Notes under the pieces: generated by a model
What the model was told of the DNA's origin: nothing
The model's database searches: none
What the model saw: the letters and a program-made list of their open reading frames with translations, nothing else
Source of the DNA: a virus
Length of the DNA: 17,604 nt
Strand: one strand, 5' to 3'
Virus record (IMG/VR): IMGVR_UViG_3300021400_000219
Span: 121,970 to 139,573 of that record
Translations under genes and position numbers: made by a program
Part shown: piece by piece, positions 923-15,487 of the stretch
Layout: the number at the start of each line of letters is the position of its first letter
Numbering within the stretch: the stretch's first letter is position 1

Positions 923-938
923 ATCGGTAATAGGTGCG

Positions 939-1173
939 CGTGTGAGCTAAAACCGTGCATATGGGGTGTTGTTAAACCGGTCGGATTTGTGTTAGAAAAA
1001 GTTGCATATGAGATTGTGTTTTCGGGATTCGCGGGGGCGGCGCTGAAAGCCACTCGTGTGAGCAAAATTTTTGCATATGGGGGTCTTGTTCGGGCGCGCG
1101 GAAACGCCGCCAGCACACGCCCGTGCGCCGGCGGTTCAAGGTGTGCCCTATTATGAGGGGTAAGCGTGTGAGC
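939..1173. repeat. iteron-like direct repeats in a GC-rich island
   Basis: CGTGTGAGC at 939-947, 1055-1063 and 1165-1173. TGCATATG(G/A)G at 956-963, 1003-1010 and 1072-1079. CTTTAAAG palindromes around 1196-1220. Confidence 0.6.
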
Positions 1174-1255
1174 CCTTATAGCCTTAAAGGTATAAAGCTT
1201 TAAAGCTTTAAAGGTCTAGTTTTGCCCGGGCGAATTAGCGCAGGCTAACCGCAGG

Positions 1256-1292
1256 TAAAAATTAAACCCCCAGGGGTTTGGACCCCCTGGGG
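1256..1292 (-). terminator. intrinsic terminator
   Basis: Minus strand CCCCAGGGG-N7-CCCCTGGGG (1268-1292) followed by GTTTAATTTTT; ends the mini-ORF transcript. Confidence 0.7.
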
Positions 1293-1337
1293 TAGGACCA
1301 TTTTTTGGCAGGTTGGTGTCCCTTCCACCTACGCTTG

Positions 1338-1361
1338 TTAAATAAATCCAGTAGGATACAT
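1338..1361 (-). CDS. 7-codon mini-ORF MYPTGFI (candidate micro-peptide or leader peptide)
   Basis: ATGTATCCTACTGGATTTATTTAA preceded by GGAGGTGATACC; tandem paralog of 1423..1446. Confidence 0.3.
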   Translation of the reverse strand: MYPTGFI

Positions 1362-1422
1362 GGTATCACCTCCATAGTATTTGAAACCACTCTTTGGCGG
1401 GCTGGCTTCTACTCCCATTCTA

Positions 1423-1446
1423 TTACGTAAATCCAGAGTAATACAT
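1423..1446 (-). CDS. 7-codon mini-ORF MYYSGFT (candidate micro-peptide or leader peptide)
   Basis: ATGTATTACTCTGGATTTACGTAA preceded by GAGGTGATTTAGAA. Confidence 0.3.
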   Translation of the reverse strand: MYYSGFT

Positions 1447-1592
1447 TTCTAAATCACCTCAACAATAATTTTTAATTCTTTAGTGTTTCGCTAGACGAAA
1501 CCTGTGGGGAACCTACGCATGGCCCTCTCTCCCTTCCTAGTCTATTCCGCAGGGGAGGTTTGGCGCCTTGCCCTCTCCCTTGGAACAATTAT

Positions 1593-1621
1593 AGTATAAC
1601 AGATAGGGCCGTATTTGTCAA
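1593..1621 (-). promoter_or_regulatory. sigma-A/70-type promoter, class A upstream module
   Basis: Minus TTGACA-N17-TATACT (TGT-extended); drives the ~300-nt transcript carrying the two mini-ORFs. Confidence 0.7.
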
Positions 1622-1713
1622 GGGGTTTTTGAAAAAAATTTAATGGAATTTTCTGGAAGTTGCGCCCGGGCGCGTTAGCCTAAGCTAACTCCCAGATAAA
1701 GGGAAAGCGGGGA

Positions 1714-3619: not shown

Positions 3620-3699
3620 GATGGTAAATTGCACAAAATGCGCAGGTAGTTTTTGTGCAAAATGCCGGGGCGCCCGGGCGGGAGTTAGCCGCAGCTAAC

Positions 3700-3878: not shown

Positions 3879-4229
3879 CTACTTTCTTTTTTGCGTCAAT
3901 GTCAACTCAAACTTCTTTCCGTCAACCTCAAAAGCAATAACTCTTTCCTTGTTAGTGATTTCAAGGTTATCAACGGAGTTAGTCAGAAAGTTAGCAATTT
4001 CCGCAATCAAATGGCCTTTGGTTTCGTTGGGTTTTCTTTCCCTTTTGGTGAATTTGTAAGCCGTAGGCTTTCTGTCTGCCTGCCTTGCTTTCTTTTCCAC
4101 CTTTTTCTGTTCAGCCGTCAAGGGGAACGGGTCTGCGCCCTTGTCGATTTCTTTATCAGTGGCAATGATTTCCATCGCTTCCTGTTCAGAAATATCAAGG
4201 ACTTTCATCAGTCTTTCCTTTTGGTTCAT
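3879..4229 (-). CDS. hypothetical basic protein, paralog family 2
   Basis: True start MNQKERL at 4229 (AGGAAGGGG SD). 116 aa, paralogous to 9262..9615 over its full length (shared ...QADRK..AYKF.K.ERK.N..K...). Confidence 0.85.
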   Translation of the reverse strand: MNQKERLMKVLDISEQEAMEIIATDKEIDKGADPFPLTAEQKKVEKKARQADRKPTAYKFTKRERKPNETKGHLIAEIANFLTNSVDNLEITNKERVIAFEVDGKKFELTLTQKRK

Positions 4230-4253
4230 GGTATCACCCCTTCCTTGATTATT

Positions 4254-4282
4254 ATTATAAGGGATAGAGGGCCAAAAGTCAA
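4254..4282 (-). promoter_or_regulatory. sigma-A/70-type promoter, class C
   Basis: Minus TTGACT-N17-TATAAT; TCGTCAATTTGCAC motif at 4294-4307. Confidence 0.65.
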
Positions 4283-4361
4283 GATAAATTTGTTCGTCAA
4301 TTTGCACAAAAGTGGTTAGTATAGGCTAACCGCACCCGGGAGAGTTAGTGTGCGCTAACTT

Positions 4362-4398: not shown

Positions 4399-4761
4399 TC
4401 AAATGTCCATGGCCTTGAAGTAGGTGACACGCTTGTCAACATACTTGTCAACCATGCCGTTGAGATACAGGGTGCGGAGCAGACCGCTCACCCGCTGGCT
4501 GGTAGCATCTGCCAGCTCAGGCACCCCAGCGCAAATCTCAGAGATGCGGAAACCCTTGTCCGAATCATCCCGCAGGAAATCCAGAATCTTGGAGCGAATG
4601 GCATCGTTTTCCACCTGCTTGGCGGAAGGCTTGCGCTCAGCCGTGGACTTCTTGGCAAAGCCCTCGGCAATCTTTTCCAGCTTCTCCCGCAGGGCAGTTT
4701 CCTCAGCAGGGACGAAAGTCAGGGCCATCTCAATAGCAGTCTTATTAGTCAGCTTAGTCAT
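4399..4761 (-). CDS. winged-helix-like small DNA-binding protein, paralog family 1 (subtype b)
   Basis: True start MTKLTNK at 4761; the track ORF extends through the promoter. The C-terminus GFRISEICAGVPELADATSQRVSGLLRTLYLNGMVDKYVDKRVTYFKAM is nearly identical to that of 9645..10019. Confidence 0.9.
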   Translation of the reverse strand: MTKLTNKTAIEMALTFVPAEETALREKLEKIAEGFAKKSTAERKPSAKQVENDAIRSKILDFLRDDSDKGFRISEICAGVPELADATSQRVSGLLRTLYLNGMVDKYVDKRVTYFKAMDI

Positions 4762-4830
4762 AGTATCACTCACTTTCTCCGTTTTAACGAGTTCGGCTCT
4801 CAATCTTTTGTTTTCCTTTACTGTACTTGT

Positions 4831-4859
4831 ATTATAGCACAGCTTGGGGAGTTTGTCAA
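4831..4859 (-). promoter_or_regulatory. sigma-A/70-type promoter (gene-proximal of a tandem pair)
   Basis: Minus TTGACA-N17-TATAAT (TGC-extended); its 5'UTR is conserved with that of 7440..7805. Confidence 0.75.
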
Positions 4860-4960
4860 GAGGTTTTGAAAACTTTTTTCGGATTATTTTACACCGACCA
4901 TTAACTCTCAAGGAGTGGCTCTCTTTCGCTCGCCGTCCCCAACCCCTCTTGACATTTATT

Positions 4961-7002: not shown

Positions 7003-7041
7003 GTTACAATTTGGTTACAAACACCCGGGCGCGAAGGTGAC

Positions 7042-7439: not shown

Positions 7440-7805
7440 TTACTCCCCCTTCACCTGGAAGCGGCTGACCCGCTTCTCCACAACCTTCTCCACGGTTCCA
7501 GCTTCTACCAGCTGGCGCAGAAGGGCGGAAGCCTGCTGGCTGGAAGAGAGTTCCAGTTCGGCGGCTACTTCCTTCGCCTGCATAGGCTCGTGGTCAGTCA
7601 GCAGTTCAACGATGCGGGCCTTGATACCCTCGTTTTCAATCTGCTTCTTGGTGGGCTTGCGCTCGCCCTTGGACTTGGAAGCGTTCCGCTTCTCATAGCT
7701 GGCCTTGCAAGCAACCAGCTTTTCCATGGCTTCCTCGTTGAAGTCAGCGGGCAGGGAAGCAATAGCCATTTCCAGAGCCTTCACATAAGTCATCTTGTTA
7801 GTCAT
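7440..7805 (-). CDS. winged-helix-like small DNA-binding protein, paralog family 1 (subtype a)
   Basis: True start MTNKMTYVKAL at 7805. Collinear with 1714..2082 (EKLxACKASYxKRN..KGERKP.KKQ.ENEG..., ...ASALLRQ.VEAGTVEKV.EKR). The stop is in the GUAA loop of AAGGGGGA/TCCCCCTT. Confidence 0.9.
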   Translation of the reverse strand: MTNKMTYVKALEMAIASLPADFNEEAMEKLVACKASYEKRNASKSKGERKPTKKQIENEGIKARIVELLTDHEPMQAKEVAAELELSSSQQASALLRQLVEAGTVEKVVEKRVSRFQVKGE

Positions 7806-7879
7806 AGTATGCACTACCTTTCTCTGTTTTAACGAGTTCAGCTCTCAATCTGTTTTGTTCTTTCCCTTACTGTGGCTTT

Positions 7880-8047: not shown

Positions 8048-8117
8048 GGGTTTTTTCAAAAGTTTTTTCTGGAATTTCTACCAAGATTTTCCAGCGACCC
8101 GGGCGAGTTAGCGGGGG

Positions 8118-9261: not shown

Positions 9262-9615
9262 TCACTTTCTGGGGGCTGATAATACTACTTTGTATTTAGT
9301 ATTTTCAAACGTAAAAATAAACTCTCTTTCTACGTTGGTTATTTCTAACGCTTCCCCGCCATTTTCATTTATTGCGGTTGTGAGAATATCCATTATTGCG
9401 CGTTTTGCGTTGTTTGCTTTACGTTCCTTTTTGGGGAATTTATAAGCGGATACTTTGCGGTCAGCTTGACGCATTTTTTTTGCTACTTTCTGTTGTTCAG
9501 AATTTAACTCAAAAAGTTTTGCCCCGTGGTCTATTGCATCATCATCAGCTAATACTTGTTTAGCTTCTTCCTCTGTCAAATCTAATACCTGCATTAAATG
9601 TTCGATTCTCTCCAT
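9262..9615 (-). CDS. hypothetical basic protein, paralog family 2
   Basis: 117-aa ORF; ATG 9615. No promoter between it and 9645..10019, so it is operonic. Confidence 0.85.
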   Translation of the reverse strand: MERIEHLMQVLDLTEEEAKQVLADDDAIDHGAKLFELNSEQQKVAKKMRQADRKVSAYKFPKKERKANNAKRAIMDILTTAINENGGEALEITNVEREFIFTFENTKYKVVLSAPRK

Positions 9616-9644: not shown

Positions 9645-10019
9645 TTAAACCCCCTCACCCATGGCCTTGAAATAAGTAATGCGCTTATCTACGTACTTAT
9701 CTACCATTCCGTTCAGGTAGAGCGTCCGCAGAAGTCCGCTCACCCTCTGGGAAGTCGCATCGTTCAGAGCGGGAACACCTGCGCAGATTTCAGAGATACG
9801 GAAACCTCTGTCCACATCTTCCCGCAGGAAATCCAGAATTTCCGCACGGACGGCGTCGTTCTCTGCCTGCTTTGCGCTAGGCTTGCGGGGAGCGGTGTTC
9901 TTCTTAATGGCCTGTTCCTTCATCTTCTCCAGCTTTTCCACAACATCCGTCATGTCAGCGGGAACGTAGGACAGAGCAACTTCCAGAGCCTTAACAGTAG
10001 TCATCTTATTGGTAGCCAT
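9645..10019 (-). CDS. winged-helix-like small DNA-binding protein, paralog family 1 (subtype b)
   Basis: True start MATNKMTTVKAL at 10019. The stop is in the palindrome GGGGGTT-T-AACCCCC. Confidence 0.9.
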   Translation of the reverse strand: MATNKMTTVKALEVALSYVPADMTDVVEKLEKMKEQAIKKNTAPRKPSAKQAENDAVRAEILDFLREDVDRGFRISEICAGVPALNDATSQRVSGLLRTLYLNGMVDKYVDKRITYFKAMGEGV

Positions 10020-10073
10020 AGTATCACTCACTTTCTCTGTTTGTGGGGTTTATCAGCTCCCCTTGATGTATTA

Positions 10074-10891: not shown

Positions 10892-11341
10892 TTAAAGACC
10901 TCCCAGAACTTCAAGAATATTATTTACATCATAGGCATTTCCGCCTGCATTATTCCATTCAATTCTATTTCTTTCTTCATCATCAAACAGGATGCCGATT
11001 TCATTTACTACGGTACTTTTGGGGGTGCCATAGGAAACAATTTTCACATCATCAAAATGGACGCTTGCCAGATGTTTTTTTAACCACATCTTTTTTGCTT
11101 CTGTTACAACCTTGTTGTAATCGGGGTTATCTTCCTTAGAGAGCCAAGAGACAACACCAATTTTCCATCCAAGGGCCTGTAACTTGTTCAGCTTGTGGGC
11201 CAGCGCAGAAAGCCGAATCAGGGGTTTTGCGATTTCATAGGGAAGGGGATTTCTCTCAATTAGATAGGAGAGCCAATTTTCCACGCCATACAGATCGGCA
11301 ATAGTCCCATCCATGTCGAAATAAATAGCCTTGTTCATCAT
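10892..11341 (-). CDS. HAD-superfamily hydrolase, 5'(3')-deoxyribonucleotidase (NT5C)-like, paralog 1
   Basis: True start MMNKAIYFDMDGT at 11341 (or 11338). DMDGT is HAD motif I (DxDxT). Roughly 60% identical by eye to 15023..15487. Confidence 0.85.
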   Translation of the reverse strand: MMNKAIYFDMDGTIADLYGVENWLSYLIERNPLPYEIAKPLIRLSALAHKLNKLQALGWKIGVVSWLSKEDNPDYNKVVTEAKKMWLKKHLASVHFDDVKIVSYGTPKSTVVNEIGILFDDEERNRIEWNNAGGNAYDVNNILEVLGGL

Positions 11342-11389
11342 TCTGACCAACCCTTTCTTTAAAAGGTTTTTTATCTTTTCTGTATTATT

Positions 11390-11418
11390 ATAATACCAAA
11401 TTTTTTTATAAAAGTCAA
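11390..11418 (-). promoter_or_regulatory. sigma-A/70-type promoter, class C
   Basis: Minus TTGACT-N17-TATTAT (TGG-extended); perfect palindrome TTTGTGCAA-T-TTGCACAAA at 11442-11460. Confidence 0.65.
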
Positions 11419-11441
11419 TAGGGAATCGCAAATTTTAGAAG

Positions 11442-11460: not shown

Positions 11461-11485
11461 AGCGCCCGGGCGAGTTACCCTGTGC

Positions 11486-15022: not shown

Positions 15023-15487
15023 TTACTTCCCTCTCGCCCATGTCAGAACGTCCATAATCATTTCAGGATTGAAGGCCCAACCTTCCATTTCTTCCCACTC
15101 AATCACATTGTTTTCTTCATCGTCAAACAGAATCCCATTTTTCACGGTGGGCACTGTGCTTTTGGGCGTCCCATAGGGAACAATGTTGATTTCATCAAAG
15201 TGAACGCTTGCAAGGTGTTTCTTGAGCCAATTCTTTTTGGCTTCAATAACCTTTTCGTCAAATTCCTTGTTGCTATTCTTAGCTAACCAACTAACTACCC
15301 CGATTGTCCATCCCTTTTTCTGAAGGTTATTCAACCGACGGGCAAGGGCGTTCATGTTTACCAGAGGCTTAGCAACTTCATAGGGGAAGGGATTGTTTTC
15401 CAGTAGATAACCCAGCCAGTTTTCTACGCCGTAGAAGTTGGCGATTGTTCCATCCATGTCAAAGTAGATTGCCCGATTGATTTTCAT
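15023..15487 (-). CDS. HAD-superfamily hydrolase, 5'(3')-deoxyribonucleotidase (NT5C)-like, paralog 2
   Basis: 154-aa ORF; AAAGGAG SD; contains YFDMDGTIA. The stop is in the GUAA loop of AGAGGGAA/TTCCCTCT (15015-15034). Confidence 0.9.
   Translation of the reverse strand: MKINRAIYFDMDGTIANFYGVENWLGYLLENNPFPYEVAKPLVNMNALARRLNNLQKKGWTIGVVSWLAKNSNKEFDEKVIEAKKNWLKKHLASVHFDEINIVPYGTPKSTVPTVKNGILFDDEENNVIEWEEMEGWAFNPEMIMDVLTWARGK

Follow-up and report, generated by a model that had tools for sequence, protein, structure and literature searches.

The stretch of DNA analysed here, called the window below, comprises 17,604 nucleotides of the IMG/VR virus record IMGVR_UViG_3300021400_000219 (positions 121,970 to 139,573). 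On its minus strand, a compact transcription unit, called the cassette below, carries no protein gene of ordinary size between its promoter and its terminator, and instead holds three open reading frames (ORFs) of seven to nine codons, encoding MRRFPTGFV (ORF1), MYYSGFT (ORF2) and MYPTGFI (ORF3). The evidence used throughout is comparative and drawn from sequence, with an independent family sample of ten ORFs from six lineages. It indicates that the mini-ORFs are translated, that the sequence of the peptides is what matters, and that they look like an undescribed family of tiny phage genes spread across unrelated phages.

The transcript between the promoter and the terminator measures ~330 nt (Table 1). 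The promoter, which is kept in all relatives, and the terminator, the top-scoring intrinsic terminator of the window, had both been proposed in an earlier note on this DNA and are borne out, as are the tandem duplication inside the unit, whose size is here ~85 nt, and the two heptapeptide ORFs with their Shine-Dalgarno (SD) sequences. The tally of two mini-ORFs was one short, since ORF1 lies in what the note had described as a mere leader, ~100 nt long, GC-rich and structured. The leader proper is not conserved: after its first ~20 nt it is swapped for a longer or different one in the related contigs L010-L019 and L036, being either 85 nt longer or unrelated and provided with a canonical TAGGAGGT before ORF1. 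In L036, this TAGGAGGT stands at normal spacing in place of the SD-like stretch of ORF1, and ORF1 itself is kept. The ribosome-binding sites of ORF2 and ORF3, GAGGTGAT and GGAGGTGAT, are invariant and conserved at functional spacing; the nine nucleotides of GGAGGTGAT are complementary to the 3' end of 16S rRNA. ATG-initiated ORFs of at most 12 codons behind an SD are rare on the minus strand of the 17.6-kb window, where only five were counted, three of them being the mini-ORFs of the cassette. The conserved tail announced for each duplicated unit is present as a short C-rich stretch with an A run, and no structure could be demonstrated in it. The terminator is situated 46 nt past ORF3, no ORF is found for ~900 nt beyond, and the next gene has its own promoters.

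Table 1. Features of the cassette, its boundaries, the TAG-containing genes of relatives and the family members found in other phages. Coordinates are those of the window unless a contig is named.
Feature	Position or contig	Strand	Sequence and remarks
Upstream module boundary	1664..1689	-	hairpin GTTAGC..GCTAAC then CGCCCGGGC
Promoter, sigma-70-type	1593..1621	-	TTGACA 1621-1616, 17-nt spacer, TG-extended TATACT 1598-1593; 11/12 matches, TG present
5' leader hairpin	1542..1588	-	RNA fold; first ~20 nt (AATTGTTCCAAGGGAGAGG) conserved, remainder replaceable
SD-like purine-rich stretch GGAAGGGAGAGAGGG ahead of ORF1	1523..1537	-	read from sequence
Mini-ORF1 MRRFPTGFV	1491..1520	-	ATG CGT AGG TTC CCC ACA GGT TTC GTC TAG
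Hypervariable spacer, ORF1 to SD2	1461..1490	-	nine haplotypes; lengths 27, 30, 54 nt
SD2 GAGGTGAT	1453..1460	-	invariant in 10/10 distinct haplotypes
Mini-ORF2 MYYSGFT	1423..1446	-	ATG TAT TAC TCT GGA TTT ACG TAA
Tail of unit 1	1374..1422	-	includes C-rich stretch and A run GCCAGCCCGCCAAAGAG; from tandem-duplication analysis
SD3 GGAGGTGAT	1365..1373	-	invariant in relatives
Mini-ORF3 MYPTGFI	1338..1361	-	ATG TAT CCT ACT GGA TTT ATT TAA; same frame as ORF1
Tail of unit 2	1293..1337	-	small hairpin ~1332-1308, then A run; fold z-score -1.5, not significant
Intrinsic terminator	1257..1292	-	stem 1292-1268: CCCCAGGGGG, loop, CCCCTGGGGG, then T run; 9 pairs, 8 GC
Downstream module boundary	1224..1249	-	hairpin GTTAGC..GCTAA then CGCCCGGGC
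TAG-containing genes past the low-coordinate end of the window	L009:8338-9686, L022:5915-8041, L025:5382-6515	-	
MREYPTGFI, L039	125.8-kb contig, locus 56% GC		GGAG..ATG CGA GAA TAC CCG ACA GGC TTC ATA TAG
MYTSGFI, L039 second ORF	78 nt on from the first		GGAG..ATG TAC ACT TCC GGC TTC ATA TGA; terminator next
MREYPTGFI, L041	17.9-kb contig		GGAGG..ATG CGG GAA TAC CCA ACA GGG TTT ATC TAA; 22 nt upstream of an 80-aa gene
MFTSGFL and MYWSGFV, L047	172-kb contig, more distant relative of the window phage		tandem, each with TAG stop, then terminator; same CGCCCGGGC boundaries
MYKSGFV, L044	228-kb contig, locus 33% GC		TAG stop
MYTSGFT, L045 / L049	loci 56% GC		TAG stop

Relatives were gathered as contigs encoding the neighbouring 122-aa protein or a close homologue of it; with the addition of a single metagenome pattern scan, ~25 contigs of the same phage species group were obtained. 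Several of them bear the ENA study tags STEW19-1, XIEF21-1, TONG22-1 and LIJU20-1, which presumably designate ruminant gut metagenomes, and no similarity to cultured phage genomes was detected by megablast or blastn. The three-ORF form of the cassette is found in the window and in L009-L012, L014-L018 and L024, and a two-ORF form devoid of the second unit, and so of ORF3, in L013, L019, L025-L029, L036 and L037. In L024 (4690-4720, plus strand, equivalent to window 1323-1257), a deletion of ~66 nt (67 alignment columns) has taken out the second tail and the whole terminator and left all three mini-ORFs.

The cassette is absent from L022/L023 and L035. In L022, the terminator of the 121-aa gene runs straight into the downstream boundary element, so that the cassette is missing exactly between the two boundaries that enclose it in the window. 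The motif of these boundaries, CGCCCGGG, occurs 22 times in the window for 0.27 expected. Its matches in the form CGCCCGGG(C), for example at 1224-1232, 1664-1672, 2302-2311, 2681-2688, 3671-3680, 7024-7031, 8098-8105 and 11463-11472, typically lie after a short hairpin at the 3' end of a small gene, just upstream of the next promoter. By its behaviour, CGCCCGGG(C) would be a module-boundary or recombination motif, the cassette being gained or lost between two copies. Since a boundary on both sides, a promoter, a cargo and a terminator are all present, the cassette makes up one complete exchangeable module like the protein-coding modules around it, and can be classed from this arrangement as a self-contained accessory module. 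A second copy of the cassette promoter and of the first ~45 nt of its leader is found at 2133-2261 on the minus strand (2200-2248, 84% identical); all that comes after it is an A/T run behind a small hairpin, before the promoter of the 122-aa gene (2161-2133) is reached. In L019, the equivalent promoter drives the mini-ORF cassette directly, an arrangement which suggests that the module of the 122-aa gene has been inserted into the cassette leader.

The variation inside the ORFs has the form expected of a translated frame. Among ~12 haplotypes of the same phage, substitutions at the first, second and third codon positions number 0, 1 and 8, eight being synonymous and one non-synonymous; the chance that at least eight out of nine fall in the third position is ~1e-3. 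Five synonymous changes (CCC/CCA, AGG/AGA, ACA/ACT, GGT/GGC and TTC/TTT) and one V to A replacement (GTC/GCC) affect ORF1, the TAG stop of which is found in every haplotype. Three events in ORF2 (TAC/TAT and ACG/ACA/ACT) are all synonymous and ORF3 shows zero substitutions among the haplotypes. When ORF1 and ORF3 of the window are compared over their common [F/Y]-P-T-G-F-[V/I]-stop, the third positions differ in seven cases out of seven and the first and second positions in two out of 14 (P = 3e-4 for nine differences). The conserved islands of the cassette are the ORFs with the SDs of ORF2 and ORF3, set between hypervariable spacers; the one between ORF1 and the SD of ORF2 exists in nine sequences of 27 to 54 nt.

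The search for RNA structure gave another picture. No compensatory change was detected in 12 hand-picked pairs, nor two-sided in the 27 pairs proposed by RNAalifold (covariation term -0.18), which in view of the low diversity is a weak negative. Hairpins can be drawn with GUUUCG/CGAAAC around the stop of ORF1 and with AUUAC/GUAAU in ORF2; their pairs are lost in several haplotypes, and two closing pairs of the candidate hairpins are broken in 3-4 of 10 haplotypes. An apparently covarying hairpin, AUUAC/GUAAU versus CCUAC/GUAGG, was discarded when further haplotypes displayed C·A and U·U mismatches. No Rfam family reached the gathering threshold in the whole window or in the long-leader variant L016, the region 1150-1750 giving chance-level matches only (E at least 0.5, 13-18 bits), and ARAGORN called no tRNA or tmRNA in the window. 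A riboswitch or structured small RNA was rejected on a whole-transcript minimum free energy z-score of -1.7 and the lack of covariation, and a CsrA sponge acting through GGA motifs was rejected on the GGT/GGC found in ORF1 where the other ORFs have GGA, and on the codon-periodic variation. The synonymous, third-position pattern together with the lack of compensatory pairs means that the ORFs vary as a translated frame predicts and not as an RNA helix predicts, which indicates that purifying selection acts on the encoded amino acids of the three mini-ORFs.

These data bear directly on the possibility that the product is a non-coding RNA (a small RNA, a CsrA-type sponge or a decoy for ribosomes or SDs) whose ORFs are incidental or translated only for RNA stability. 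A strong promoter and terminator without protein gene, together with several GGA and SD-like motifs, are what such an RNA would display, and the lambda bar minigenes show that sequence-independent minigenes exist. Minigene toxicity by peptidyl-tRNA drop-off is documented (PMC2490762). The codon-periodic, synonymous variation largely refutes this possibility, and the pairs lost from candidate hairpins without compensatory change, the lack of an Rfam match and the divergence of the nucleotides across phages where the peptides stay the same all go against it, so that we consider it very improbable. In particular, a sequence-independent decoy, one of the options of the earlier note, is contradicted by the constraint at the amino-acid level, and the importance that the note had attributed to the peptide or its translation is upheld by the eight synonymous versus one non-synonymous changes among orthologues, by the differences between ORF1 and ORF3 at every wobble position and by the recurrence of the peptides with other codons in unrelated phages. 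Two further candidates were dismissed: T4 gene-60-style bypassing between the repeated CUGGAUUU, for which no matching take-off and landing codons lie beside the stops, and a type III toxin-antitoxin system (toxI-like), for which no toxin gene or ORF follows the terminator, the repeats of the cassette being only two and codon-constrained.

That recurrence was revealed by codon-degenerate pattern scans, exact-nucleotide patterns having returned nothing in IMG/VR. These scans gave the same peptides in unrelated phage contigs (Table 1). The heptapeptides conform to M-[Y/F]-x-[S/T]-G-F-[T/V/I/L] and the nonapeptides to M-R-[R/E]-[F/Y]-P-T-G-F-[V/I/A], with [F/Y]-x-[S/T]-G-F-[V/I/T/L/A] as the core under selection, and in 10/10 family members the motif directly abuts the stop codon. 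A GGAGG, GGAG or AGGAGG stands 6-10 nt before the ATG in L036, L039, L041, L044, L045 and L047. The two ORFs encoding MREYPTGFI, in L039 and L041, differ at six sites, all of them third positions. Both L039 and L047 hold two members side by side, the second lying outside the search pattern that had found the first. Among ORFs of 6-10 codons, the pattern [FYW]-x-[ST]-G-F-x-stop was found neither in 212 kb of phage loci retrieved as controls through protein similarity nor in 300 shuffles of the window. Chance matches to the pattern were set aside in L020 and L021 (exact pattern inside coding genes) and in L038, L040, L042, L043, L046 and L048 (inside coding regions, without SD). No member was detected in 29 kb of phage Phass-1 or in the eight IMG/VR relatives L001-L008, and a literature search for these peptide strings found nothing relevant. 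L001 and L047 have the same or a similar boundary motif.

The presence of the same heptapeptides and nonapeptides in unrelated phages, added to the selection on amino acids, argues that the ORFs are translated and that the peptide sequence matters. The phages concerned span 33% to 56% GC at these loci, and no protein is common to loci of different lineages at E < 1e-5, nor was a shared receptor found in those loci. A spread over such different base compositions, in loci without a common neighbour, points to a target that is universally conserved.

The window phage reads TAG as sense outside its early region, as judged from its relatives. Their opposite-strand genes just beyond the cassette contain in-frame TAGs and no other internal stop (5-9 in each gene of L009 and L022, 6 and 2 in two genes of L025), and Phass-1, the nearest phage to have a name, is placed in the 'Caudoviricetes code 15 clade'. 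The window's own genes are in standard code, with 20 TAA, 15 TGA and 3 TAG stops, and TAG is a true stop among them: 3879-4307, closed by TAG, and its paralogue 9262-9615, closed by TGA, finish at one and the same residue of their alignment. The standard-code array which holds the cassette is probably expressed early. The arrangement agrees with a published model for recoded phages, where the genes in standard code are expressed before the switch (bioRxiv 10.1101/2021.08.26.457843).

In such a phage, the mini-ORFs might be artefacts of the standard code, TAG being an amino acid within an ordinary recoded gene that would encode one 60-aa protein from the ATG of ORF1 to the TAA of ORF3. Just outside the early region the phage is indeed recoded, ORF1 and ORF3 share a frame with two TAGs as the only stops between them, and public pipelines call products of 56-180 aa at this place (P0025-P0027, L010 6649-6831, L025 3658-4200). 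Against this, ORF2 lies in another frame behind its own invariant SD, and its three changes, synonymous in its own frame, become T to I and R to H/L in frame 1, in which the spacer changes are also mostly non-synonymous. A 1-nt indel downstream of ORF2 separates L019 from L013/L025, so that the product would have 36, 56, 60 or 180 codons according to the haplotype. TAG is a genuine stop in early genes, as seen in the paralogue pair; in unrelated phages only the heptapeptides or nonapeptides are conserved, and readthrough of their mini-ORFs would add just 1-6 codons. The 60-aa gene was consequently rejected as the selected or main product on the frame of ORF2, the non-synonymous changes in frame 1 and the indel-dependent end, and as an account of the locus it is to be regarded as most unlikely. 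A residue is left unexplained in frame 1, which has no TAA or TGA across the region and spacers whose three lengths, 27, 30 and 54 nt, are all multiples of 3; late readthrough of frame 1 may occur and matter. Gene callers using a TAG-sense code on short early-region contigs gave spurious fusions, 60-180 aa long, that span the cassette together with its terminator, and in L025 (1542-2765) a spurious 407-aa call fuses three early genes.

The locus might also be a device sensing suppression or termination, or another cis-regulatory device, in which translation of the mini-ORFs, and readthrough of the UAG of ORF1 after the amber suppressor has become active, would influence how the RNA folds, whether the terminator is used or how the following cistron is translated, and would time expression to the code switch. 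Such a function would be compatible with the TAG of ORF1 in all haplotypes, with a frame open save for two TAGs from ORF1 across the SD and body of ORF2 to the stop of ORF3, with the spacers in multiples of 3, with the frame of the first ORF of L047, likewise open across the second ORF, and with the nonapeptide ORF of L041, located 22 nt upstream of a gene whose 80-aa product is ribbon-helix-helix-like by eye only. The window itself has nothing between ORF3 and the terminator, its next gene lies ~900 nt downstream with its own promoters, readthrough adds just 1-6 codons in L045, L044 and L039, and L024 is without terminator; moreover, pure sensing leaves the cross-phage conservation of six residues unexplained. 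We therefore regard a regulatory device of this type as quite unlikely. The ribosome-stalling leader put forward by the earlier note is, as a classical cis-regulatory leader, unlikely for the same lack of anything between the ORFs and the terminator.

We tentatively favour, at less than even confidence, an action of the peptides on the ribosome while their own synthesis terminates or immediately afterwards. The target would be the ribosome making them, or any ribosome, as it terminates; once the stop codon is in the A site, the six conserved residues should adjoin the peptidyl-transferase centre. The peptides might delay or block release (release factor 1, RF1, reads UAG and UAA) or remain in the exit tunnel after it. 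A very strong promoter, very strong SDs and two to three copies per transcript would load many ribosomes. In a phage that later reads UAG as sense, the effect would be to weaken termination by RF1 or to provide a readout of it, and in other phages it could give a general handle on host translation.

Several observations, taken together, weakly point to such a role. Three of them have been given above: all ten members have the motif right before the stop, the phages differ widely in GC, and the window phage is itself TAG-recoded. The ten independent family ORFs stop at TAG in six cases, at TAA in three and at TGA in one (P = 4e-5 versus the TAG usage of the window, 3/38, and 6e-3 versus a generous 20%). 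The base after the stop is C in 6/10 members (P = 0.02), a context in which model bacteria terminate poorly. In L044, a tRNA(CUA) follows the family member ~1 kb downstream on the same strand, and two genes of the peptidyl-tRNA hydrolase family PTH2 (PF01981, E = 8e-35 and 5e-5) flank the member; the one in L045/L049 is found 380 nt upstream of a tRNA array. At L044:10405-12330 (minus strand), MYKSGFV-TAG heads a cluster made of the two PTH2 genes, the amber-suppressor tRNA(CUA) and a tRNA-Ser, possibly a code-change neighbourhood. Just before the tRNA array of L045 (4480-4545, plus strand) stands a tRNA-like acceptor/T-arm minihelix, GGTAG..GCCGGTTCGATTCCGGC..CTACCA, uncalled by ARAGORN, which might represent the remnant of a tRNA or else an attachment site. 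Attenuation of the downstream tRNA genes through the Thr/Ser codons of the L045 ORF was considered and rejected, the leader codons not being those read by these tRNAs.

Other facts weigh against an action at termination. In the window, ORF2 and ORF3 end in TAA and one relative's ORF in TGA, so that the link with TAG is statistical and drawn from ten cases. The close relative L022 is TAG-recoded and has no cassette, which means that recoding can do without it. Two lineages supply the whole association with tRNA and PTH2 genes, and tRNA clusters are frequent in large phages. The C-terminal motif is not known to resemble any arrest or release-inhibiting peptide. Lastly, a C-terminal motif adjacent to the stop would be equally expected of a released peptide recognised by its free C-terminus.

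This last point leads to diffusible micropeptide effectors, for which the released heptapeptides and nonapeptides, probably keeping their (formyl-)Met, would bind a non-ribosomal host protein through the C-terminal [ST]-G-F-aliphatic and assist host takeover in an accessory manner, the tandem copies providing dosage and variants. Selection at the peptide level and conservation across phages, tandem and diversified copies, a module standing alone between a promoter and a terminator of its own, as do the small protein genes nearby, and accessory presence or absence all agree with this possibility. Moreover, a TAG stop in a recoded phage would limit the peptide with a free C-terminus to the early phase and would also explain the excess of TAG stops. 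Less favourable are the lack of a candidate receptor gene beside the ORFs and of a protein common to loci of different lineages, the short life of free heptapeptides in the bacterial cytoplasm, and the need for a target conserved across hosts of very different GC. The resemblances to the ClpX IGF loop, the FtsZ C-terminal peptide and ComS/XIP (YFTGCL) are imperfect. Effectors of this kind are the main rival of an action on the ribosome, and we hold them to be somewhat less probable than it.

A more specific form of the action on ribosomes can be drawn by analogy, although it is an unlikely one: the peptides might be the RF1-neutralising part of the recoding switch. Made in bulk before the code switch, they would occupy the tunnel as nascent or just-released chains and trap or slow RF1 on UAG/UAA, reducing its competition with the amber-suppressor tRNA, and their own TAG stops would end the production by readthrough.

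The comparison with known systems places the cassette apart from them. The gene mccA, which encodes the microcin C heptapeptide MRTGNAN, is among the shortest known bacterial genes. The cassette resembles it in having SD-led ORFs of seven codons, a terminator hairpin close behind and what should be an abundant short transcript with the peptide as product. MccA, with Asn at its C-terminus, serves as substrate for an adenylyltransferase encoded next to it, MccB, whereas the peptides of the cassette end in V, T, I, L or A and are encoded by tandem ORFs on a phage of lytic type. The ORFs of the window that were scanned include no MccB-like enzyme, and large ORFs are absent within 2 kb of the cassette. 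Short arrest or leader peptides are also known, such as ErmCL, MsrDL (MYLIFM) and TnaC, as are the pentapeptide minigenes of macrolide resistance such as MRFFV. Their ORFs are likewise very short, the C-terminal residues near the peptidyl-transferase centre matter, and MsrDL and TnaC arrest with the stop codon in the A site. However, ErmCL, MsrDL and TnaC precede a regulated gene, with alternative RNA structures or a small-molecule cofactor, whereas the mini-ORFs are followed only by a terminator, exist in two to three copies and have no similarity to known arrest motifs. A regulated gene immediately downstream is not found in the window, L041, with its gene 22 nt after the nonapeptide ORF, being the exception.

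Lambda bar consists, like the cassette, of phage-borne SD-led ORFs of a few codons without downstream gene; it acts via the translation apparatus and is linked to peptidyl-tRNA hydrolase, and here one member (L044) lies beside two PTH2 genes. The bar ORFs have 2-3 codons and an effect set by the last tRNA and the context, in contrast to the 7-9 codons and six conserved residues of the present family. The RRNPP/arbitrium systems use a secreted precursor of at least 20 aa and an adjacent TPR receptor, in contrast to ORFs of mature size without signal sequence, and no TPR match was obtained among the neighbours of the cassette (proteins of 91-230 aa). Judged by these features, the cassette falls outside the mccA, lambda bar, arrest-leader and pentapeptide-minigene families, each failing at least one of the defining features tested.

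The apidaecin derivative Api137 and drosocin trap RF1/RF2 on the terminating ribosome (PMC7544508, PMC11347161), and apidaecin offers the precedent of a small tunnel-binding peptide which, by trapping release factors, causes genome-wide readthrough (PMC7544508). The likeness lies in a small peptide with a critical C-terminal end, in an action in the exit tunnel at termination and in stop-codon readthrough, an effect that a TAG-recoding phage needs. Apidaecin-type peptides differ in being of 18-19 residues, proline/arginine-rich, of insect origin and active from outside the cell, and they have no sequence similarity with the peptides found here, for which an analogous activity is pure hypothesis. 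The code-switch toolkit described for stop-codon-recoded phages consists of suppressor tRNA, release factors and aminoacyl-tRNA synthetases (bioRxiv 10.1101/2021.08.26.457843). The cassette is akin to it in being standard-code, in a region which would be expressed before the recoded genes, with one member near a tRNA(CUA); it differs in that the described toolkit is without mini-ORFs and in that the cassette is dispensable, cassette-free relatives being recoded.

As for its surroundings, the window is tiled with small genes and has 87 promoter-like sites for 32 expected, nearly all on the minus strand. The gene array is made of repeated paralogous modules, all on the minus strand and each with its own consensus promoter: four copies of a ~120-170-aa winged-helix-like protein (1714-2082, 4399-4911, 7440-7814 and 9645-10031), two of a 117/142-aa protein (3879-4307 and 9262-9615) and two NT5C-like nucleotidases (10892-11431 and 15023-15487). 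At 930-1140 (minus strand), a GC-rich non-coding stretch contains two near-alike copies of CCCCATATGCA-N9-GCTCACACG ~116 nt apart, with partial half copies; it is followed at 400-930 by a region of 22% GC with dense promoter-like sites on both strands. The whole region 400-1140 is non-coding according to the indels among relatives, is conserved in L022 and loosely in L001, and could serve as an origin, a terminus or a regulatory hub.

No annotation pipeline sees genes of 7-9 codons, and public databases either skip the locus or call spurious 'proteins' of 56-180 aa. A conserved family under selection across unrelated large phages would add an overlooked class of phage gene product. The combination of a TAG-recoded phage, a preference for TAG stops and the tRNA/PTH2 setting of L044 could give an experimental handle on how recoded phages overcome the RF1 of their host. 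If the peptides did neutralise RF1, they would be the missing component of the stop-codon recoding switch that does so, and their ORFs the smallest known phage effector genes. Whatever the target, a heptapeptide effector conserved over hosts of 33-56% GC would have to hit a very conserved piece of the bacterial machinery.

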